A DNA stretch of 64,000 nucleotides from Spirulina sp. (GCA_044070495.1 JBIPSI010000008.1:64001-128000); one strand, 5' to 3'; numbered from the stretch's first letter, positions 743 to 13,827 are shown. A program made the numbers and translations. The notes: generated from the sequence alone by a model not told the origin.

Positions 743-1299
743 CGATTGACGCCGAAGGTTGCGAAGCATCGTGCTGGTGCCCACCGTCAAGGCTTTCTAG
801 ACAAGCTGAGGAACCCAAGTTTTGATCGGCCAGGTTAGGAGAGATTTTGCTCGTTTCAACGATCCGATAAGCGCCGTTATGGAAGAGATATAGTCGTTCA
901 TTATAAGAACGAGACAAGCTAAGCAGGGAGAATCTTACACAAGTAGGCTTTATAGATTCTCAAGCTTAATTAGAGTGACTATAAACGGTCAAGCGGCCAC
1001 GATCATAAATTCAAACCTCAGGAACTTGCAAAATTGCGTAAGCCTCCAACGTTGTTCTGGAGATAACGTCCGCTTCAATGGCGAGATCCGGCGGTGGATC
1101 GGTGTCCATATCCATCCGCATCAGGGCGCGTACTCGTGCGGCATTTTCAATAGTTAATCCTAGGAACGCGGCGATCTTCCCCTGACTCGGCGTATAGGGT
1201 CTCGTATTGCTCCCAGGTAACATCGTTGATCAACAGGTGGCTACCCGGTGACAGGTCAATGGTAGTGATGGGAAGTTTGACCAAGTTGAGCACAGTCAT
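740..1299 (-). pseudogene. Uma2-family (DUF820) endonuclease pseudogene
   Basis: ATG at 1299 gives MTVLNLVKLPITTIDLSPGSHLLINDVTWEQYETLYAESGEDRRVPRINY*. Another frame continues IENAARVRALMRMDMDTDPPPDLAIEADVISRTTLEAYAILQVPEV*IYDRGRLTVY, and C-terminal pieces read YLFHNGAY and VPQLV*KALTVGTSTMLR. Shows an internal deletion, two nonsense codons, a frameshift and an insertion. Confidence 0.85.
891..981. mobile_element. 91-bp miniature inverted-repeat element (MITE-like, TA target duplication)
   Basis: Ends TAGTCGTTCATTATAAG and CTTAATTAGAGTGACTA are imperfect inverted repeats, flanked by TA at 889-890 and 982-983. Removing the element and one TA restores the Uma2 frame (TVYLFHNGAY). Confidence 0.8.
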
Positions 1300-1526
1300 C
1301 GGGGATCCCTAGGTTTTGGAGTGGGCTTAGCTCCATTGTAAACAACGCCTAGAATGGTTCGGCCTTGATTATTTGCGAATACTAGAATGGCATCTTCCAC
1401 GGGCACTATCCCAAAACCATCGCCGACGCCGGGGAATCCCATGGTCAGCAGGATAGATTAGCAAAGCGTCATCCATGCGGCAAGGGAATTTTTGCGAGAG
1501 GCCATTAAATAGAATTGATGAGAATT

Positions 1527-1556
1527 GATGCGTTACGCTGGCGTAACGCATCCTAC
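1527..1556 (-). repeat. GTAG-type REP-like palindrome
   Basis: GATGCGTTACGC-TG-GCGTAACGCATC is a perfect 12-bp stem followed by CTAC (GTAG on the minus strand), just after the stop of the 1562-2095 gene. Confidence 0.75.
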
Positions 1557-1561
1557 GGACT

Positions 1562-2095
1562 CTAGTCGTCATCCATGAGAGCCTGCATAGCAGATTGAAG
1601 ACTGCATTCGCTCGTCACAACCGAGTCAATAAGCACACTCATAGAGTCGAGAGTAAACATCCACAGCAGTAATGTTTCGAGGAACTCTTCCGGGTCAATT
1701 CCCCTGGATTTACCTAGAGCATTAACATACTTAAAAACAACTTGGTTCTGAGAATCCAGGCAAAAGCTACCTAGGGGAATCTTTAAGTTAATGGTCGGCA
1801 ATAGCTCAATAATTGCTGAGCGGCTCAAGTCGTCTTCTAATTTTATAGGTGTTTCACAATAAAACTGGAGTAGCTTTAGCGTTTCCACATCCGATTCGTC
1901 TAGCGGGATGAAGATGAGGCTAGCAATTCTAGATCGTCCTTTTGCGTCCGCTTCAAGCTCAATGGCTAAGGTGGTGATAGGCACCTCGGACGAACAAGGT
2001 AAAACCTGACTATTGAGATCCAATTCTGATTTAATCGCCGCTTCTAGTTGCTGAAGTTCAAAGAGGCTTCTAGCCTCATTCATGGCATCACTCAT
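1562..2095 (-). CDS. YbjN / type III secretion chaperone-like small acidic protein, putative chaperone or immunity partner of the upstream DUF4157 protein
   Basis: 177 aa, acidic, with pattern LLQFY...IIELLPTINLKIPLGSFCLDSQNQVVFKY and a C-terminal amphipathic helix. Has a GAGG RBS and starts 44 nt after the DUF4157 stop. Confidence 0.6.
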   Translation of the reverse strand: MSDAMNEARSLFELQQLEAAIKSELDLNSQVLPCSSEVPITTLAIELEADAKGRSRIASLIFIPLDESDVETLKLLQFYCETPIKLEDDLSRSAIIELLPTINLKIPLGSFCLDSQNQVVFKYVNALGKSRGIDPEEFLETLLLWMFTLDSMSVLIDSVVTSECSLQSAMQALMDDD

Positions 2096-2139
2096 TGGAA
2101 TTTTACCTCTAGTTTAATGTGAGATTTTATCGGTAGTAG

Positions 2140-4896
2140 CTAGCGTTTTTTCATGGCTTCAACGAGCATCTCGACTTGCTCTTTTGGGTTATGTCTCTCA
2201 GCCAACCACATTCCGTAGTTAACGCCAGTGGCACGAATAAGTTGTTCGGTCTGGTCTGCCTTCGCTGTATCGCCTGGTTTTAGCGTGGCAACTTGTTGAT
2301 AAATAAATTTGGCATGACCAACATATTCCCTATGTTTATTTTGAGAAGACTTCTTGTCTGACCCATCTCCTGAATCGCGATATATTTTCTGAATAAATTT
2401 GGCACTACTATGACCAACCCTATAGGCTCCTGCTCCAAGTTTAATGCTTTGCCCGATGGCGGCACCAATTCCTGTTGCGCCAACCGCAATGGTGGTAATA
2501 TCGCCCGCCATACTAACTAGTTCTAAGATGACATCCGTCCATCCACTGGTTTTCCTCTTCTTATTAATCTCAGACATCTTATCGGCATACTCATAGGTAT
2601 CAATCTGTTGATCAACATCTTCTAGAGGTTTTACGGTATTATCTCGGAACTCTACGACCGTGCGGGGGGTTCCGGTTAAGTCTTCAAGCTTTTTCTTAAC
2701 CTCTGCATTGAGGGTGGAGCTAGTAATCTTCGCTTTTACGGCGACATGTGCCCTCTTAGCAACGGAACGATCTTGCCTAGAATCTCTAGCGACATCACCC
2801 AGATTCTTGGATCTTTCCTGTGCTAATTCAGAAATTTGCTTGATCGATTCTCGCACATCCTTTTTAATGCGGAAGTAGGTTTTGTAGTTAGGGAAGGTAC
2901 CTCGTCTATCCTTATCAAATACCTTAGAGTCTTTAACATTATCCTCAGTGGGAACAGTATCTCCCAGGGTGCTGGCAAGGGTTATTCTTAATGGACTGGC
3001 TAATTGTCCCATGCTGCTCTTGGTTTTGTCGGCTGTAATCGCATCCCAAAGTCGGACTAGCGCATTAATAGCCGATACTCCAATCGATAGGGCTGGCACT
3101 GTATAGACAACTGACATAGGAATGCCCTTGCCAATAATATCGTAGGCTGACTTCGCAACCTTGGCTGCGCTAGCGGCTGCATTGGTAAAGGATTGAAAGG
3201 TAACCAGGGCATCTTTCTTTTTTTCATCGCTCTGCGATTTAAATAGACGATAAATACCAATAATGCCAAGGGCAGCATCCTTAACGGCGCTCAATCCATC
3301 AGCAATCGCACCTGTAACTTTTCCAGCCACATCTGATTTCCCGACTCCTTTTTCAGAACCACTTATCTTAGCAATTGAATCTACGATTTTCGTTGAGCCT
3401 GAGGTTGCTTTGCCGAGTGACTGAACAAATCCGAAGCCAGCGGCAAAGTTATCCCAAGCACTTTTGTCTTTACTAATTGCCTGGAAATTCGCTGCAAGGC
3501 CCAGCAATCCAGAAAAAGTATCTCCTACACCAGCGGTAATATCCAACCCTGTTTTAGCCGTTGTACTGCCTGATGAGGCATCTTCCCTATCATGCAATCT
3601 ACCATCTTTAATCGTCTTCAGAGACGATTGCTCTATAGTTCCTGCCGAACCATCAAAAAAACCACCTGCTGTATCTGTTGTATTTTGTCCAACCTCGAAT
3701 GAGTCACTTTGAAACTTTGGATCAGTGACCCCTGTTAGGGTACGCTTTAAAACAATTTTGCTTTTGCGTAAATAGCCATCTTTGCCAGCGGCCTTGGCTT
3801 TCGTCCACTCCCCTATCGTAGCGGTCTCATCGGCTTCTACCTCATCTCCAGACCTTAGCTTTTTCCCACCTGATACGGTTCCCTTATCCTTTCCTGTGGT
3901 TGGATCAATGCGATGAAGCTGGGCTGTATCGTTGACGTAGGCTACTTCAAAGGCCGCCTGAATAGAAGGAGGCACATTAGAGGAAGTGGAAGGTTTTGGG
4001 AGGATAGAACCCATTGACATCTCTAACCTATTTTGTGGGATGTTAGGTTCTTGGATCGCATCTGAGTTCAAGTTTCCAGAAGCCCCAGATCGCTGCACTG
4101 TTGCCCCCTTCTGCTGCACCACATGGGTTAATTCATGGGCAATTAATTCCTGACCTCCACGGCTTCCCGGTTGATAGGCTCCTTGGCGGAAGAAAATATC
4201 CTGCCCTGTGGTAAAGGCTTTGGCTTGAATGGATCGGTTCAGTTGGTCGGATTGGCTATCGGTATGAATCCGCACATTGCTAAAGTCGGCCCCCATGGCG
4301 TGGCCTATTTTGGCTTGCAAATCGGGTGCGAGGGCTTGGCCGCTGCCCCTGGCTTGTTGAATGCCTGTTTCTAAATAGGGAGAAGCCTCTCCTGCTACAA
4401 TCTGGCCAAGCGATGCCGGCTTCATTTGCAGTTCGTCTTCCTCGGTCATCTCCAGCCGTTGAAGCATGGGCTGCATTTGCAGTTCGTCTTCTTCCAGGGC
4501 CTTGCGCTGCAAGAGGGGCTTCATTTGCAGTTCGTCTTCCTCGGGCATGGCTAGCCGCTGGACAGCCGGGGAAGGGTGGGCTGGGTTGGCACTGGGTGCA
4601 TGGATGTGCTGCACCACCTGGCTAGCCACGCGGTCAGCCTCTTGTTCGTAGGGATCGTTAGGCGCACCGATGGTGAGCTTGGGTTGAATCGGTTGCCTAC
4701 TGGTGCCGCTTGGGTCTTGGATGGTAAAGGTATGGAAAGACACCTCAGGAGCGGCACCTATGGAGTTTGGGGACAGGGCCTCTGGGGCGGTCTGGGCCTC
4801 GGGGACTGGCGCGAAGGGGCGAGGCTGAAAAGGGTCTGGGATATGGCCTTTCGGAGTTGGAGAAGATTGTTTTTTTCGAGAGAGGTTATCTTTCAT
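2140..4896 (-). CDS. DUF4157 (eCIS core domain) protein with SH3-like segment and Gly/Ala-rich hydrophobic helical C-terminus, putative toxin/cargo
   Basis: QPKLTIGAPNDPYEQEADRVA, three EEDELQM repeats, and GSGQAL...MGADFSNVRIHTD...AKAFTTGQDIFF...LIAHELTHVVQQ (DUF4157 with HExxH). Confidence 0.85.
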   Translation of the reverse strand: MKDNLSRKKQSSPTPKGHIPDPFQPRPFAPVPEAQTAPEALSPNSIGAAPEVSFHTFTIQDPSGTSRQPIQPKLTIGAPNDPYEQEADRVASQVVQHIHAPSANPAHPSPAVQRLAMPEEDELQMKPLLQRKALEEDELQMQPMLQRLEMTEEDELQMKPASLGQIVAGEASPYLETGIQQARGSGQALAPDLQAKIGHAMGADFSNVRIHTDSQSDQLNRSIQAKAFTTGQDIFFRQGAYQPGSRGGQELIAHELTHVVQQKGATVQRSGASGNLNSDAIQEPNIPQNRLEMSMGSILPKPSTSSNVPPSIQAAFEVAYVNDTAQLHRIDPTTGKDKGTVSGGKKLRSGDEVEADETATIGEWTKAKAAGKDGYLRKSKIVLKRTLTGVTDPKFQSDSFEVGQNTTDTAGGFFDGSAGTIEQSSLKTIKDGRLHDREDASSGSTTAKTGLDITAGVGDTFSGLLGLAANFQAISKDKSAWDNFAAGFGFVQSLGKATSGSTKIVDSIAKISGSEKGVGKSDVAGKVTGAIADGLSAVKDAALGIIGIYRLFKSQSDEKKKDALVTFQSFTNAAASAAKVAKSAYDIIGKGIPMSVVYTVPALSIGVSAINALVRLWDAITADKTKSSMGQLASPLRITLASTLGDTVPTEDNVKDSKVFDKDRRGTFPNYKTYFRIKKDVRESIKQISELAQERSKNLGDVARDSRQDRSVAKRAHVAVKAKITSSTLNAEVKKKLEDLTGTPRTVVEFRDNTVKPLEDVDQQIDTYEYADKMSEINKKRKTSGWTDVILELVSMAGDITTIAVGATGIGAAIGQSIKLGAGAYRVGHSSAKFIQKIYRDSGDGSDKKSSQNKHREYVGHAKFIYQQVATLKPGDTAKADQTEQLIRATGVNYGMWLAERHNPKEQVEMLVEAMKKR
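4418..4545 (-). repeat. Three intragenic repeats encoding EEDELQM(K/Q)P
   Basis: CATTTGCAGTTCGTCTTC occurs three times in 4418-4545. Confidence 0.85.
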
Positions 4897-5067
4897 CGCG
4901 CTTACCTCTAGCCTGCACCGGCCTGATTACCTAGGTTCCCAGCCTCACTATGTCACAGGAGCCTGGGCTTGTTCCTTAGCCAATGGTCGAAGATCTAAAC
5001 AAATTCCCAGGTCGCACAGACCTCCCCCTGGCTGACTAACACAACAGCGAAAAGCCTTGATATCTCA

Positions 5068-5157: not shown

Positions 5158-5297
5158 GGTATGTCAGGCCATTAGGCCCTACCCTTCTGCCTTATAAGGA
5201 AGCCAGAAAGGGGGAGGGCAGGGATCTAGGTTGATTTTAGGTTCGGTGTTCGGCGGCTGGTTGACTGACAAAACTTGCTAGAACCCATATCCGCCAA

Positions 5298-5358: not shown

Positions 5359-5410
5359 GGCGCAGGATCTTTTGTCAGTCAACCAGGTTCGGCGGTCAGC
5401 GACGGTCTCT

Positions 5411-8020: not shown

Positions 8021-8782
8021 ATGAAATTCACACCTAGCGCCAGTGACTATGACATGGAAGATGTAAAAAATGCTATGAGGGTAGAAGAGATTATTGGGGG
8101 CAGTGAGTTTCCAGATTTACTGAAATATACTAGAAGTTGCAACTTTAAGTGTGAGTACGCATGGATTCGTGAGTTTCTTATAGAATCTGACAAAATTCTC
8201 AAAGCAATGAGCAAGCCAAGCGATCCTTTTCAGTCTTCCTTCCCAGAAACTGCTATGTCCACCGCTATTCTTGGGCCAATGATGAGATTGCTTGGTTTTT
8301 ATGGTAACGGCTTGATAGTTCTTCATGAGGCACCAGTGAACTTCAGTCTAATGGGTGATTCTTATTCAAGAACAATTGAAGGATTCGATTTATATGAAAA
8401 CGAGGAAAAGCATTCAGTAGAAGGGAAAATCGACTTCCTAATTCTTTCTTCTGAATCTGAGAGAAAAACTGAAGAAATAGAAATTACTAGCCCCAGTGGA
8501 CTGAATTACCTAAGTTTACGCAAATGGGAACTAGGGATAGAGGTAAAGAAGTGCGGAGAAAATAATCTATCCAAACACGTTAGTCAACTACTCTTATACA
8601 TGAATGTCAATATAAATCTCGAAACACCAAAGTACGGATTATTGACTAACGGAAATGAAAATATATTAATTAAGCTATTCAGAGACTCATCGCAAAAGAA
8701 ATGTTACAGCCTTTTTGAGGCGAAGGGAGTAGGATATCTATTTTATATCTTAAAGTTTTTCAGATTTCGTGAACATTTATAG
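8021..8782 (+). CDS. AT-rich PD-(D/E)XK nuclease-like protein (type I restriction HsdR N-terminal-like)
   Basis: EGKIDFLI...IEVKK...QLLLYM...YGLLTNG pattern. Visibly lower GC than its neighbours. Confidence 0.65.
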   Translation: MKFTPSASDYDMEDVKNAMRVEEIIGGSEFPDLLKYTRSCNFKCEYAWIREFLIESDKILKAMSKPSDPFQSSFPETAMSTAILGPMMRLLGFYGNGLIVLHEAPVNFSLMGDSYSRTIEGFDLYENEEKHSVEGKIDFLILSSESERKTEEIEITSPSGLNYLSLRKWELGIEVKKCGENNLSKHVSQLLLYMNVNINLETPKYGLLTNGNENILIKLFRDSSQKKCYSLFEAKGVGYLFYILKFFRFREHL

Positions 8783-8849
8783 TCATCCTAATTAAGTTTG
8801 AAAACCTGAAAGGCTTGCTAGGTTGAGGTTTTCAGCATTTAGCTTGTCT
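8780..8849 (+). mobile_element. Partial second copy of the MITE-like element
   Basis: Gap-free hand alignment to the reverse complement of 891-981 gives 49/70 identities. Preceded by TA. Right end is degenerate. Confidence 0.7.
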
Positions 8850-8902
8850 GAGGAGTAAAGGCTGACATAAAACCCTGAACATCCACTCACCCCTAAGCAC
8901 TC

Positions 8903-9454
8903 CTACCAACGTTGGGGAGTAAAGTTATCATCATTGAGAATCACGACGCTATCCCCAGACTGGGCCAGTACAAATAATCCCTGACGATAGGCATAGCGGG
9001 CTACCGAGTTGGGCACCACCATTCCGGCCACCGCACCCATGGCATTCACATCGGCATAGCGAGGCATCAGCCGCTTAAACTTGCCCAGTCGCTCTAGGTG
9101 ATCGTTGACATCGGCTTCCGTCAATTTGCTTTTCACCTCGACCACGATGGCGTCCGTGGTATTCACCACCAGCAGGTCAATTTCAATGCCCTCATTGCCA
9201 CGTTGCACCAAAATGCCATCGTGGAATTCATGGACGGCAATACCCCGTTCTTGAAACAACCGCACCACCGCCGGACGCACCTGCCATTCCACAAACTCGC
9301 CCAAACGGTTGCCCAGCTTGCCCAGTTGCTCGTTGAGGTGTTGGTTTTGCTGTTTGATCAACCGTCGAGTTTCCTCAAGCTGGCGATCCGTTTCCTTTTG
9401 GGCAGCGGCAAGTTCGCCCAACACACGCCAAACATCATCCGCCGTAGTGGCCAT
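8903..9454 (-). CDS. DUF3782-like coiled-coil plus PD-(D/E)XK protein
   Basis: MATTADDVWRVLGELAAAQKET coiled coil, GNRLGEFVE, EIDLLVVN...VEVKSKL. Confidence 0.75.
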   Translation of the reverse strand: MATTADDVWRVLGELAAAQKETDRQLEETRRLIKQQNQHLNEQLGKLGNRLGEFVEWQVRPAVVRLFQERGIAVHEFHDGILVQRGNEGIEIDLLVVNTTDAIVVEVKSKLTEADVNDHLERLGKFKRLMPRYADVNAMGAVAGMVVPNSVARYAYRQGLFVLAQSGDSVVILNDDNFTPQRW

Positions 9455-9632
9455 AGGGCACCCGCCAAATCTTGACCTACGCCCATGCTAACACCGCTGC
9501 TCGGCTACAAAGCGGTACAGGTCGAGACCCGCTTTGGCAGATTGACGATAGCAAGATTACTGGTGATCTGGAAGCGGTTCAGGATAGTCCTACCCACGTC
9601 AGTATTTTACCAATCGATACCTGGAGACTAGG

Positions 9633-10163
9633 GTGATGACATGGAAATTTAGCTTATCAGCAGAATGCGGTTTAGATGAAAGCAAAGCGAAGCTGTTCTC
9701 CCAATATTTTGATGGAGTGATTTGGACACTCTCCAATGGCCGCCAATGCCAATGTCGAACTGCTACTTTCCAGGATATTGAAGAGAATTGGTGGTGCCAG
9801 GTCTGTCCCAATAATATCAGCGAGATTGGAATCGAGTCTCCTGAAAGTGAATATTCGATGACAGAGTTAGGAATTCTCTTTTACCAACATTTGCGTTCTG
9901 CTCCCAAGTTTCGATATGCCTTAGTTGGAGTCGAAGTCGATGAATTCAGGACTTACAGCGAGTTATTGGAAGATTTTTCTGCGTTATCTATCCCAGGTTT
10001 AGTTTTAGCTGTTGAGGTTGGGCAAGAAATGGAGCTATCCCCAGTTTATCGCCCCTTCAGTCCTGGCTATGTTTGGCTACCCTATGAGGGTGAAATTTAT
10101 AATCCACTAATGGCATCTCCAATCCTGAAGAACAAGCTGAACAAATTATTACTGGCAAGCTAA
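9633..10163 (+). CDS. Hypothetical protein, integron-type gene cassette ORF
   Basis: 176-aa AT-rich ORF with no recognisable domain, followed 19 nt later by an attC-like site. Confidence 0.7.
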   Translation: MMTWKFSLSAECGLDESKAKLFSQYFDGVIWTLSNGRQCQCRTATFQDIEENWWCQVCPNNISEIGIESPESEYSMTELGILFYQHLRSAPKFRYALVGVEVDEFRTYSELLEDFSALSIPGLVLAVEVGQEMELSPVYRPFSPGYVWLPYEGEIYNPLMASPILKNKLNKLLLAS

Positions 10164-10353: not shown

Positions 10354-13300
10354 CTAAAATCCCATCGGAAAAATTCCGGCTTCTAGGCGTTGGGCTTCTT
10401 CTAGCTTTTGCTGGAGCTGGTCGCGTCCGGCGGGGCTGTGGAGGATGGGGACAGTTTCGAGCAGGGCGGGGAAGGTGATGACATCCCAATCGTTGGGTAA
10501 GTAGCAGGAAACTTCGGCCCGCTGGAGCCAGATTCGCTGGCTTTCGGGGTGCCAGATAAATTGGCTGCGGGGGCCAAGGGCGAGGGCGGCGAGGGTGGGC
10601 TGGCGGGGGCAGTCCTGGGGGTTGGTGCCCTGGAAACTGGGATCGCGGTAGCGGGGTAGGGGGATGGGCTGAAAGCTGACCCGATAGTCGTGGGCCTGCA
10701 CCCCTAGGCGGGTGGCTTCGACTTGGATGCCCTCCACGCCGACGGCAAAGACGAGGTGGTGACGGAACTGGGCGCTGGGAAAGCCGATGCTGGCCAAGCT
10801 GGGGGGCAGTTCGTAGCGGTTGATGCCCGCCGCCAGGAGGGAACCCAGCAGCAGAATTTTTTGAAAACCGGGCACATCCCATTCGCCCACCAGGCGCTGA
10901 TCTCTGGCTTCGGCGTAGAGGTTGGCGAGGGCGCGGAGGCGGGGGGCGGCCTGGAGGTCTAGGGCGATCAGTTCCTGCACGTTGAGGGTTTCTTGGCCGT
11001 AGGCGCGGAGGGCGGCGGGGGTGCCACCGTAGACGGCAATGTCGGGGGCTTCGCGCAGGTAGATGGCGAGGCTGCGGCGAAAGGCGAGGTATCGCGGATC
11101 GTAGGGGTCGGCGGGGGCAAAGGCTTGGTCGATCAGGCTAGCCAGGTGAGCCTGGAACCCCACCGCCTGCTTGAGGGTGGCATCGATGCCGATATCTTGG
11201 CCGTTTCCCACCATGGCGGCATAGAAGGTTTCGTGGAGGCTGGCCCCTTGCTGGGCGAGGGCGTGGTAGGTGCGAATGGGGACAGTGAGGTCGTGGAGGG
11301 GGTCGGCAAGCTGGGGCACCCGCTGGGCCAGCCAGGGCCAAAAGTCGGCATCTAGACCGTGATCTCGCAGGGTCGCGTACACCAGTTGATCGGCGGCGGC
11401 GGTTTGGGATTGGCCCTGGAGCCACTCCAGCAGCAGCCCCCGACCGTTGGCGTAGGCTTGGGTGAGGGGATAGCCTGCCTTTTCGCTGCGGGACACCAGA
11501 ATAGACAGGGTGTTGCCACCGTTGAGTCGGCTGGCTTCGGTGGGGGAAAGGCGGGGGCTGAGGCCCAGGCGGGTGGGGTCGGTTTTGGCAGCGTCGGCCA
11601 GGGCGGTGGCGAGGGTTGGCGTATGCTGCGTCGCGAGGGTTCGCAGTTGGTCGGTAATCTGTTGACGCAGGGCTTGCTTTTGGCGTTCGTTGTCAACGAT
11701 CTGCCTCGCCAGGGTAACTACCTCGGCGGGGTAAACCCCGGTTTCTGGAAATTGCACGATGCCCAGAGCCAGGGAAATCGCGCCTTCCTCGGCCCCAAAG
11801 GTAACGTTGGGCAGTTTGGAGAGCACCTCTGGGGTGCTGGCTAGGCGGCGGCTTTCTAGCTCGGTGGATCGCTCTAGGTGGCGCACCAGGCCATAGCGCA
11901 GCAGCGGCCCCCAGGGGCTACCATCGGCCACCCATGGTCGCAGCACCAGTTGTTTCATGGACAGGGATTGCTCGTCGCGCCAGAAGGATCCCACTATTCC
12001 GGCCCCGGCGGTGATGGGTCTGGCCTCTGGGGTACGCAGCAGCGGGTCGTGCAGGGTACGCAGGGAATGATCCAGCATCCACAGCGATTCCGCCGGATCT
12101 AGCCCCGCCGCCCGACTCGATTCGACATAGATGGGCATGAAATACTCCACAAAAAAGCGGTCGGTATTGAACCGCTGCCCCGACCGATAGGCCTCTAGCT
12201 TGCCCTGTTGCAAATCGGCGGCGAGGGCGGTGATGAAGGGGCTAGTCTGCAAAAACCAAAAGAATTTACGGTCGAGGTGGGGCGACAACGCCGTCCGAAA
12301 TTGCGCCCTGGCTCGGTTGTAGGCCGCTTCGGAAAGGGGCGGTACCACGGTGCCATCGCGCAGGGTAAACCAGGCCCCATCCCGCCGAAAGGCGTAGCTA
12401 GCCCCCTCAATCAGCGGCACCGACTGACGCAGGGGCAACCCTTGCATGGTCATCCCCAGGCTGGTGGCGATTAGGTCGGGGTCGAGGGTGAGGGCGAGGG
12501 AACCCGGTGGCGGTTGACCCGTAGCTTGCAGCTCGATTTGGGGATCTTGCCAGGGGCCAGTCACCCGCAGGTTGCCCTCAAAATGCTGGTCGGGGGCCAG
12601 GGGCAGGGGTTGGCCCACCAGGCGCTCCAGTTCCGCCGCCGCCACCGAGGGCACCTGGGCGGTGAGGTCATACCCCTGGGGATCCACCTGCCCCGCCGCC
12701 GTTAGGAACAAGTTTCCCAATTGCAGGTGAGTATCGTGCAGCGTTGCCCGCTGGCCCTGGAGCCACAGCCCGCCCTGCCACCGCAGCGGCTCCGCCACCC
12801 GCCCCAGTTGGCCTTTGCCCCTGGCTATCACTAACCCTTGGGCCTCGGTCTTGGCGAGGTTAGGCCGACCCGTACCATCCAACGGTACCGTCAGCGACAC
12901 ATGGCCGTTGACCACCCCGGTTTGCAGCGTAATGGGTGTCGGCAGTAGGGCATTGAGGGGCGTGAGGGGCAATTGGGCCGCTTGCAACGTCGCTTTAGCC
13001 AAGGATTCAGGACTCGTGCCCACCGTGCCAGGATTGGGCAGGGTGCCGCTGAGGGTAAACTGGCCCTGATCGAGTTGGCCCGCCAGATCAAAGGCCATGG
13101 CCCCTGTGGCAGGGCGAAGGACGGATCCCTCAAGCCCCTCTATATATAAGTGGGATGTCCCGGTTTCTCCCAACACCGTGACCTGCCCCCCTTGGATATG
13201 TACCGCCGCCAGGCGGGGCCGACTGTCCTGATCTGGATTGTTCTGATCGCGACTGTCCTGATCCTGGCTCTCCTGGGTAGAGGTCGCCAAATCCATGGGG

Positions 13301-13827
13301 GATAAGGCCCAGGGAAAATCTCTAGGCGCTAGTACCGTGATCTGCGGCTGATCGAGGGTAACGGTCAACCAGGGATCGGTGCCCTTGGCCCAGGCCAGCC
13401 CATCCAGGCCAAGGATGACGGTGCTAATTTGCCCGTGCCACGGTTTACTCGGTTCTGGGGGAAATTGCAGCGGGCCAAGGTGAAAACCCCGTCTGGATAC
13501 CCCTTGCAGACCTCCCAGGCGCACCGGACGCTGGAAATGCTCTGTCAGTTGGGTTTCCCCATAGCGTTGCAGGCTGTGGGCCAGATAGAGGGTGCCCGCC
13601 CCTCCCGCCAGCAACAGCCCTAGCACGAGGCCATGGCTCCAGGTCAGCGTGGGTGGTTTGGCGACCTTGACCCTTGCCACCTTAGATCGGATGGCCTTGG
13701 GTTTGACGGTCTCAGATGGGACAACCTTGGATCTTGATGGCGCGGGACGAGTGCCAGGGGAGGGCAGCAGACTTTCTAGGAACCAGCCTAGGCCAAAGAA
13801 GGGACGGGGGGGACGAGATGGGGTCAT
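10354..13827 (-). CDS. Membrane-anchored AsmA/TamB(DUF748)-like N-terminus fused to an unknown ~680-aa C-terminal domain
   Basis: TM helix GLVLGLLLAGGAGTLYL, then RPVRLGGLQGVS and Gly-rich beta-strand repeats up to LRVTGPWQDPQI. The remainder is unrecognised. Confidence 0.6.
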   Translation of the reverse strand: MTPSRPPRPFFGLGWFLESLLPSPGTRPAPSRSKVVPSETVKPKAIRSKVARVKVAKPPTLTWSHGLVLGLLLAGGAGTLYLAHSLQRYGETQLTEHFQRPVRLGGLQGVSRRGFHLGPLQFPPEPSKPWHGQISTVILGLDGLAWAKGTDPWLTVTLDQPQITVLAPRDFPWALSPMDLATSTQESQDQDSRDQNNPDQDSRPRLAAVHIQGGQVTVLGETGTSHLYIEGLEGSVLRPATGAMAFDLAGQLDQGQFTLSGTLPNPGTVGTSPESLAKATLQAAQLPLTPLNALLPTPITLQTGVVNGHVSLTVPLDGTGRPNLAKTEAQGLVIARGKGQLGRVAEPLRWQGGLWLQGQRATLHDTHLQLGNLFLTAAGQVDPQGYDLTAQVPSVAAAELERLVGQPLPLAPDQHFEGNLRVTGPWQDPQIELQATGQPPPGSLALTLDPDLIATSLGMTMQGLPLRQSVPLIEGASYAFRRDGAWFTLRDGTVVPPLSEAAYNRARAQFRTALSPHLDRKFFWFLQTSPFITALAADLQQGKLEAYRSGQRFNTDRFFVEYFMPIYVESSRAAGLDPAESLWMLDHSLRTLHDPLLRTPEARPITAGAGIVGSFWRDEQSLSMKQLVLRPWVADGSPWGPLLRYGLVRHLERSTELESRRLASTPEVLSKLPNVTFGAEEGAISLALGIVQFPETGVYPAEVVTLARQIVDNERQKQALRQQITDQLRTLATQHTPTLATALADAAKTDPTRLGLSPRLSPTEASRLNGGNTLSILVSRSEKAGYPLTQAYANGRGLLLEWLQGQSQTAAADQLVYATLRDHGLDADFWPWLAQRVPQLADPLHDLTVPIRTYHALAQQGASLHETFYAAMVGNGQDIGIDATLKQAVGFQAHLASLIDQAFAPADPYDPRYLAFRRSLAIYLREAPDIAVYGGTPAALRAYGQETLNVQELIALDLQAAPRLRALANLYAEARDQRLVGEWDVPGFQKILLLGSLLAAGINRYELPPSLASIGFPSAQFRHHLVFAVGVEGIQVEATRLGVQAHDYRVSFQPIPLPRYRDPSFQGTNPQDCPRQPTLAALALGPRSQFIWHPESQRIWLQRAEVSCYLPNDWDVITFPALLETVPILHSPAGRDQLQQKLEEAQRLEAGIFPMGF

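Follow-up and report, generated by a model that had tools for sequence, protein, structure and literature searches.

Analysis of a 64,000-nucleotide stretch of Spirulina sp. DNA (GCA_044070495.1 JBIPSI010000008.1:64001-128000; here called the window) revealed a pair of minus-strand genes between positions 1562 and 4896. The first encodes a 918-amino-acid (aa) protein with a DUF4157 (eCIS_core) domain, and the second, downstream of it, encodes a 177-aa protein of the YbjN family. The 918-aa protein is interpreted here as an orphan cargo of a contractile injection system (CIS) that carries an exchangeable tip. The tip would be of an undescribed kind, probably active on a membrane or envelope, and the YbjN-fold partner would bind it, serving as holdase and for self-protection. 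Taken as a whole, we regard this interpretation as evenly balanced between right and wrong. What appears to be new is a C-terminal family with three conserved parts and an obligatory YbjN-fold partner, and with this partner, a chaperone or protector dedicated to cargo may have come to light in a CIS for the first time. A first-pass annotation of the window had proposed a stand-alone cargo, a chaperone-fold partner, and a CIS encoded elsewhere. Every testable part of this proposal held, namely, the fold of the partner, the co-occurrence of the two genes, the presence of CIS genes in the genome, and the existence of relatives inside CIS clusters. The accompanying claim of an undescribed system was too strong, because DUF4157 cargo proteins with variable toxins have been described (PMC8213781); the part that stood is that neither the C-terminal family nor the YbjN-fold partner was found in print.

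The open reading frame (ORF) map of the window gave the two genes the sizes and the 44-nt spacing (2096-2139) that had been predicted. In the 918-aa protein, the only family recognized by Pfam was PF13699 (eCIS_core, formerly DUF4157), located at aa 189 to 265 (E 9.9e-32; score 109.4 bits, cut-off 22). DUF4157 has been described as a core domain of extracellular contractile injection systems (eCIS) that contains an HExxH motif, is located N-terminal to variable toxins, and has an unknown role (Geller 2021, PMC8213781; Danov 2024, PMC11297309). In the 918-aa protein, this motif is HELTH (aa 254 to 258). The domain had been expected at the N terminus; it is present, and it is not at the extreme N terminus, as a 188-aa region rich in Pro, Gln, and Glu precedes it. 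This region includes three EEDELQM(K/Q)P units, at aa 119, 135, and 152. The parts of the protein are ordered as an N-terminal domain (NTD), which, from its composition, may be disordered, DUF4157, and a variable C-terminal domain (CTD), with a Ser/Pro-rich linker at aa 266 to 316. NCBIfam contained no family for the 918-aa or the 177-aa protein, and a sequence search of the PDB with both proteins gave no match at E < 0.2. Gene callers elsewhere begin the large protein at codon 52, which yields 867 aa. The 918-aa start was favored because the five DUF4157 paralogues of the genome are conserved upstream of codon 52, where R26-P27-F28-A29 is invariant.

The five DUF4157 genes of the source genome encode proteins that are 53 to 64% identical over aa 1 to 265. 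Their DUF4157 core is near identical, with the HELTH motif invariant, and they diverge right after HELTHVVQQ. One paralogue on contig C14 (656 aa) remains similar to the 918-aa protein through aa 409, the SH3-like domain included. Across the five paralogues, the GC content is 0.55 to 0.58 in the N-terminal part and 0.42 to 0.51 in the C-terminal tip, compared to 0.567 for the genome. In the pair studied here, the GC content drops from 0.564 in the N-terminal part to 0.453 in the tip, and that of the partner gene is 0.442. The paralogue on contig C13 (G000 C13:37782-40754; L041:1783-4755) is 817 aa long and ends in a barnase-like ribonuclease tip (PF00545, E 1.2e-6). A Barstar gene (PF01337, E 2.9e-22) is positioned directly after it. 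Judged by their sequences, these two proteins are evidently a toxin and its immunity protein, the toxin being another orphan built on the N-terminal scaffold of the 918-aa protein. Because the barnase-like paralogue is followed by Barstar, the slot after the orphan DUF4157 gene would therefore hold a cognate protective binder. Three features of a polymorphic toxin were found together: a shared N-terminal part with a sharp junction, a compositional break, and a small gene that co-varies with the tip. Two further paralogues (C14:109615-111495, 626 aa; C19:58558-60741, 727 aa) have low-GC tips in which no Pfam family was found, and the ORF map contained no small same-strand gene downstream of either.

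The 177-aa protein has a pI of 4.1, with 30 Asp and Glu residues against 12 Lys and Arg residues; the pI of the C-terminal parts of the cargo is 9.2 to 9.8. Its match to the YbjN family (PF10722) has an E value of 7.9e-7 and, with 29.8 bits, exceeds the cut-off of 22; of 20 aligned members of the partner family, 9 matched PF10722 at E <= 0.01. A structural model generated from a 20-sequence alignment (pLDDT 91.2, pTM 0.86) revealed an alpha/beta chaperone topology, in which helices flank a twisted antiparallel sheet. A Foldseek search with this model returned the YbjN-like protein DR_1245 as the top match (E 9e-4), followed by type III chaperones. Superposition with VIA-align gave a Z score of 15.6 for DR_1245 (rmsd 2.3, 135 residues aligned), 12.8 for both VecA and E. 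coli YbjN, 12.4 for AmyR, 11.8 for SicP, 11.7 for both Spa15 and ExsC, 11.2 for SycT, and 10.3 for CesT. The first 34 of the 50 matches listed were all YbjN-family proteins or class I chaperones of type III secretion systems (T3SS). The acidic character that had been ascribed to the small gene is borne out by the pI, and its chaperone-like character by Pfam and both fold searches. The fold belongs to Pfam clan CL0097. The partner was filed as a YbjN-fold protein and not as a T3SS chaperone because the linked machinery that was found is a CIS. Prediction of a complex between the partner and aa 580 to 918 of the cargo (score 0.16, mark 0.32) speaks neither for nor against binding.

A word-indexed search with the C-terminal region revealed 36 relatives, mostly labeled as cyanobacteria and including one Chloroflexi metagenome-assembled genome (MAG); 29 of them carry PF13699. 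Exhaustive searching with phmmer gave 114 representatives at E <= 0.001. The Pfam scan of this set covered 61 of the 103 new representatives. It identified eCIS_core on 26 of the 61 and a sub-threshold Phage_T7_Capsid match on one. Besides eCIS_core, no delivery domain (PAAR, Rhs, VgrG, or other) was found on the scanned relatives. A contig search with the large protein alone returned only two loci, one of which was a weak Bacillus match.

Of 401 genomes sampled from the class to which the source belongs, eight, the source genome included, gave a match to the C-terminal domain. The partner gene is located directly downstream and on the same strand in 8 of 8 loci (seven other genomes and one named MAG contig), at a distance of 9 to 182 nt in the seven loci measured. 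The pairing holds even in G038, G238, and G279, in which the alignable part is limited to the final ~150 aa, named module B; this module is all that the 918-aa protein shares with the distant relatives that lie at CIS loci and also carry the partner. The converse search with a profile of the partner detected 12 loci in 11 of the 401 genomes, and the C-terminal domain family is encoded directly upstream in 9 of the 12; one partner locus is cut by the end of its contig. The source genome contains no paralogue of the partner. These results answer the co-occurrence check proposed in the first-pass annotation.

A classical toxin-immunity pair, in which the tip is a toxin, possibly an enzyme, and the partner is solely an immunity protein or antitoxin without a role in solubility or loading, is an unlikely account of these observations. 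It agrees with the position of the partner, which is that of Barstar after the ribonuclease-tipped paralogue, and with the polymorphic toxin scheme of a conserved N terminus, a swapped low-GC tip, and a cognate small gene. The partner also stays with module B in loci whose C-terminal region is otherwise diverged, and this module is rich in invariant polar residues, including H829, H855, E857, and H861. Against it stands the fold of the partner, which is that of peptide-binding secretion chaperones; no immunity family was among the fold-search matches. In addition, the partner contains nothing that resembles a signal peptide or a membrane segment and so could neutralize only in the cytoplasm, which in practice amounts to a holdase, and the immunity and chaperone roles are compatible with each other. 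The stricter chaperone proposal is possible, if doubtful: it holds that the YbjN-fold subfamily consists of dedicated CIS cargo chaperones that keep a hydrophobic, membrane-attacking tip soluble and hand it to an AAA+ unfoldase.

The interpretation as a CIS cargo draws on distant relatives of the pair that are encoded within CIS clusters. In G238, the pair is positioned between a Baseplate_J gene and a convergent WHD-AAA ATPase gene. Beyond the ATPase gene, this cluster encodes Pvc16_N, a sheath, four gp19 tubes, a 2,055-aa protein, CIS_tube, and a VgrG-like spike. The pair of G279 is located beside genes for the ATPase, Pvc16_N, and a LuxR-type two-component pair. Pvc16_N was found in 8 of 8 genomes that contain the C-terminal family and in 169 of the 401 genomes overall, a comparison in which related genomes are not independent.

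The lack of tail genes in the window, which the first-pass annotation had noted, was confirmed. No sheath, tube, Pvc16_N, Baseplate_J, or gp25 gene was found on C8, the contig of the window, and the whole-genome matches to these families are all located on C3, C7, C30, and C40. The CIS structural genes of the source genome, a search for which had been suggested, are present away from the window and are split over at least three places. Contig C7 (40000-59000) encodes CIS_tube, a 2,391-aa protein, four gp19 tubes, a sheath, a histidine kinase, a LuxR regulator, and Pvc16_N. The start of C14 (1-9200) encodes a VgrG-like spike, a Cache-HAMP protein, a WHD-AAA ATPase, and another DUF4157 protein, and C30 (48100-50400) encodes gp25 and a 737-aa Baseplate_J protein. 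Further sheath and baseplate matches on C3 and C40 may represent prophage tails. Several neighboring genes are recorded here as separate observations. On C14, the Cache-HAMP sensor gene lies between the ATPase and spike genes. On C7, the histidine kinase and LuxR-type regulator genes adjoin Pvc16_N, and the same regulator arrangement occurs in G279. Approximately 10 kb from the CIS block on C7, a 988-aa protein with caspase-like Peptidase_C14 and nSTAND1 NTPase domains is encoded (L034:8853-11819; G000 C7:68852-71818).

It is very improbable that the pair has no link to a CIS. The large protein would then be secreted by another route or remain intracellular, with DUF4157 acting as a stand-alone zincin-like peptidase, and the YbjN neighbor would be a general stress or regulatory protein. 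Consistent with such an account, the window contains no CIS genes, and no secretion role has been shown for YbjN-family proteins such as AmyR and E. coli YbjN (PMC5398634, PMC13466201). Moreover, the source genome contains three other PF10722 matches, which are unlinked to DUF4157. The evidence on the other side is the partner subfamily itself, which comprises 19 clusters among 5.8 billion proteins (by a word-indexed search, in which relatives can be missed) and is almost always joined to the cargo family. Distant pairs also lie inside CIS clusters, the CIS marker is present in all eight carrier genomes, and the N-terminal 265 aa are common to the paralogue that adjoins the CIS ATPase and spike genes.

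The C-terminal region of the 918-aa protein contains, as had been predicted, an SH3-like beta segment: in the model, CTD residues 17 to 83 (aa 317 to 383 of the full-length protein) form beta strands with a block pLDDT of 64 to 86. Foldseek matched this segment to SH3 domains with a probability of 0.95 to 1.00 but with E values of only 0.08 to 0.26, and VIA-align matched it to the SH3b region of LytB at Z 8.2. The Gly/Ala/Ser-rich hydrophobic helices described in the first-pass annotation, which amount to ~530 aa in the present analysis and match no known family, agree with the composition of aa 391 to 600 (12.4% Gly, 12.9% Ala, 11.9% Ser) and with the hydropathy profile. In windows of 19 residues, hydropathy is highest at aa 596 (Kyte-Doolittle 1.78) and aa 789 (1.63). 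The segments at aa 587 to 622 and aa 786 to 822 are long enough to span a bilayer; their hydropathy is only moderate. A Pfam search of the C-terminal 618 aa with E values of up to 1, performed across the 36 relatives, found no family in this region, and only eCIS_core recurred. The C-terminal model has a mean pLDDT of 62.5, with CTD residues 88 to 300 (full-length aa 388 to 600) mostly below 50, and because the model is poor, the region may still have a known fold. The most likely site of action of the C-terminal cassette is, in our opinion, a membrane or envelope of the target.

An improbable alternative is that the protein is an accessory of the CIS life cycle. It might lyse or permeabilize producer membranes for particle release, leaving ghost cells, or be an inert tube-filling or anchoring part, with the partner keeping it inactive. 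The SH3b-like match to LytB fits such a lytic role, as SH3b-like domains often occur in cell-wall-binding proteins. The position of distant family members in the middle of CIS clusters, between baseplate and ATPase genes, is also in agreement with it. Furthermore, cyanobacterial CIS act after envelope shedding, and it has been suggested that eCIS-associated proteins may aid lysis (PMC8894136, PMC8213781). On the other hand, the 918-aa protein is one of five paralogues with exchangeable tips, one of which is a ribonuclease with an immunity protein, and this is more easily reconciled with a weapon than with a housekeeping part. With 8 of 401 genomes, the family is also rare compared to the CIS (169 of 401) and so cannot be a general requirement of the CIS.

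Returning to the cargo interpretation, the following sequence of events is proposed. The 918-aa protein would be one of five polymorphic cargo proteins of the CIS of this genome, and the N-terminal 265 aa, that is, the Pro/Gln/Glu-rich region and DUF4157, would be the shared part that directs cargo to the machine. By analogy with Cgo1 and Cgo2 of AlgoCIS, the AAA+ ATPase would load the cargo into the tube lumen. The low-GC C-terminal 600 aa would constitute an effector cassette that can be exchanged and that belongs to an undescribed family; it is composed of the SH3-like domain, Gly/Ala/Ser-rich amphipathic helices, a hydrophobic helix, an invariant hairpin, and a basic Gly-zipper module. The co-inherited YbjN-fold partner would bind this cassette in the cytoplasm of the producer and keep its hydrophobic, aggregation-prone part soluble and harmless until loading. 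The partner would thus act as chaperone and self-protection at once and would be left behind in the cell.

Several observations weigh against this proposal. Concerning the pairing, partner locus G137 has no large gene upstream, and in G252 the upstream ORF, which is cut at the edge of the locus, has no detectable similarity to the cargo family. The gene downstream of the ribonuclease paralogue encodes a true immunity protein, and a pure immunity role for the partner is therefore as natural as a chaperone role. Promoter-like and terminator-like sites are no more frequent than in shuffled sequence. Concerning delivery, no CIS gene was found within ten genes of the 918-aa gene, and 88% of predicted eCIS toxins have been reported within ten genes of the operon (PMC11297309). 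Concerning the membrane, a buried helix of the soluble partner reaches a Kyte-Doolittle value of 1.67, which matches the 1.63 to 1.78 of the cargo. The Foldseek rows to the alpha-pore-forming toxins XaxB, NheA, SmhA, MakB, and ClyA have E values of 0.13 to 0.27 and probabilities of 0.1 to 0.44, and VIA-align matched the C-terminal model to generic helical hairpins only (Z <= 10). Look-alikes in the ESM Atlas, namely, RTX (0.84; TM 0.44), SseF (0.76), and a cluster with 23% VasX_N (TM 0.32), are all under the thresholds of the tool. The H, E, D, K, and R residues that are invariant in module B would be just as compatible with an enzyme. Finally, loading into the CIS, physical binding of the pair, membrane activity, and the holdase role are steps that we infer.

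The features of the locus are compiled in Table 1.

Table 1. Features of the gene pair and of the encoded proteins (window coordinates; aa numbering of the 918-aa protein)
Feature	Position	Strand	Basis
918-aa DUF4157 (eCIS_core) protein, putative CIS cargo	2140..4896	-	ORF call, Pfam, relatives
177-aa acidic YbjN-family protein with class I type III chaperone-like fold; putative cognate partner of the cargo C-terminal domain	1562..2095	-	Pfam, model, fold search
CTAGAGGTAA, Shine-Dalgarno-like (GAGG), 5 nt upstream of the ATG of the 918-aa gene	4902..4911	-	k-mer count
Second CTAGAGGTAA, 7 nt upstream of the partner ATG, within the 44-nt spacer	2103..2112	-	k-mer count
N-terminal region, aa 1-188, Pro/Gln/Glu-rich, motif QPKLTIGAPNDPYEQEADRVA; putative loading sequence	4333..4896	-	Composition, paralogue conservation, analogy with Cgo1/Cgo2
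Three direct repeats of 44-51 nt encoding EEDELQM(K/Q)P	4418..4560	-	DNA repeat family D1
DUF4157 / eCIS_core, aa 189-265	4102..4332	-	Pfam
SH3-like beta domain, aa 317-383	3748..3948	-	AlphaFold2 model, fold search
Module A, Gly/Ala/Ser-rich helices, aa 390-622, ending in hydrophobic helix aa 587-622	3031..3729	-	Composition, poor model
Near-invariant basic/aromatic beta hairpin DRRGTFPNYKTYFR, aa 660-677	2866..2919	-	Alignment, model
Helical linker, aa 678-759, length differs among homologues	2620..2865	-	Alignment
Module B, aa 760-918, C-terminal, basic, many invariant polar residues	2143..2619	-	Alignment
Gly-zipper-like hydrophobic stretch, aa 786-822 (VILELVSMAGDITTIAVGATGIGAAIGQ...), inside module B	2431..2541	-	Hydropathy

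The 10-mer CTAGAGGTAA precedes both start codons, as the first-pass annotation had stated. The window contains three copies, compared to 0.02 expected, and the genome contains 15, compared to approximately 10 expected naively, which is near chance. In the homologous loci, the 10-mer is not conserved ahead of the genes. A role as a conserved regulatory element was rejected on account of this lack of conservation and the near-chance genome count, and the 10-mer is best read as a local Shine-Dalgarno-like element.

Further observations were made in the surroundings of the pair. Between a TolC-like OEP gene and the partner gene, 819 nt (window 743-1561) of intermediate GC content (0.49) contain only short ORFs of 50 to 70 aa with no family matches; this segment may be the eroded edge of an inserted cassette. 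On the other side, the 514-nt spacer from a glutamate dehydrogenase-like gene to the DUF4157 gene contains a perfect 17-nt inverted repeat at 5257-5273 and 5370-5386 (CTGGTTGACTGACAAAA / TTTTGTCAGTCAACCAG), the arms of which are 96 nt apart. This repeat may be what remains of a small mobile element, or it may act as a structured terminator. A second low-GC islet, with GC down to 0.39, follows a GcvT-like gene (window 8021-10163). It contains ORFs of 253 and 176 aa without a Pfam or NCBIfam family and a 183-aa ORF with weak, sub-cut-off matches to DUF3782, PD-(D/E)XK, and NERD. A high-GC ORF of 1,157 aa is located at 10354-13827 on the minus strand; its only match is a sub-threshold one to DUF748 (E 0.013), and it is overlapped by a long ORF on the same strand in a different frame.

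How CIS choose, safeguard, and load their cargo is an open question that is actively studied for protein delivery. The loading parts known so far are an N-terminal loading sequence and an AAA+ ATPase. Approximately 40% of cyanobacterial genomes carry a CIS, the targets and function of which are unknown (PMC8894136). No literature joining YbjN and contractile injection was found, and the DUF4157 and CIS literature, at the level of titles and the beginnings of abstracts, contained no cargo-specific CIS chaperone of YbjN fold. If the proposal is correct, a cargo-specific partner with a chaperone fold, inherited with the exchangeable tip, would be a new and directly testable component of CIS loading, and the client-holding logic of type III systems would have been recruited by a wholly different injector. 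The widespread and functionally obscure YbjN family would gain its first clear secretion-linked client, and a new family of membrane-active effectors would provide the first candidate effector type for cyanobacterial CIS. For annotation, orphan DUF4157 genes could be assigned to a distant CIS through the shared N-terminal region.

The closest known proteins by description are Cgo1 and Cgo2, which are cargo of AlgoCIS, and the Anabaena proteins Alr3311 and Alr3312. Cgo1 and Cgo2 consist of an NTD, DUF4157, and a CTD and occupy the lumen of the tube; their loading requires the NTD, DUF4157 can be dispensed with, and the cargo is presumed to be unfolded by the AAA+ protein Alg15 (PMC8894135; bioRxiv 10.64898/2026.05.27.728243). 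Alr3311 and Alr3312, which are DUF4157 proteins, were detected by mass spectrometry in purified thylakoid-anchored CIS (PMC8894136). All four have the same order of parts as the 918-aa protein, a likeness of description and not of sequence. Their genes are located in the CIS cluster, and the available text describes no partner for them, whereas the gene studied here is an orphan with a strictly linked YbjN-fold partner. As far as the published descriptions go, the C-terminal family also differs, being unannotated in the 918-aa protein. The eCIS-associated toxins (EATs) of Geller et al. 2021 and Danov et al. 2024 likewise carry DUF4157 ahead of a long linker and a C-terminal toxin domain that varies; immunity genes adjoin some of them, and their genomes carry an eCIS, as is the case here. 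In the text available, the validated domains of EATs are mostly enzymes (ADP-ribosyltransferase, deaminase, nuclease), whereas the present tip has no Pfam family and looks helical and amphipathic.

The partner has the same fold as the class I T3SS chaperones (SicP, SycT, CesT, Spa15, SscB) and the YbjN family (YbjN, AmyR, DR_1245), with Z scores of 8 to 15.6 over 108 to 135 aligned residues. Like the T3SS chaperones, it is small and acidic, and its gene adjoins that of its presumed client. SscB, a chaperone of class I, covers a transmembrane segment in its client SseF (PMC13466201), and the presumed client here likewise has hydrophobic segments. T3SS chaperones usually bind an N-terminal region of the effector, whereas the partner goes with the C-terminal module, and the machine presumed here is a phage-tail-like injector and not a type III system. 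A related logic is found in type VI secretion systems (T6SS), where the cytoplasmic Eag (DUF1795) chaperones are encoded beside the effector and shield transmembrane helices before loading by binding N-terminal prePAAR transmembrane domains. The shielding logic is the same as that proposed for the partner, but the fold family is different. Finally, polymorphic toxins of the barnase/barstar type have in common with the pair a shared N-terminal trafficking part, a sharp break, a swapped low-GC tip, and a cognate downstream gene. They differ in that the tip described here has no known toxin fold and that the product of the downstream gene folds like a chaperone and not like a known immunity protein.

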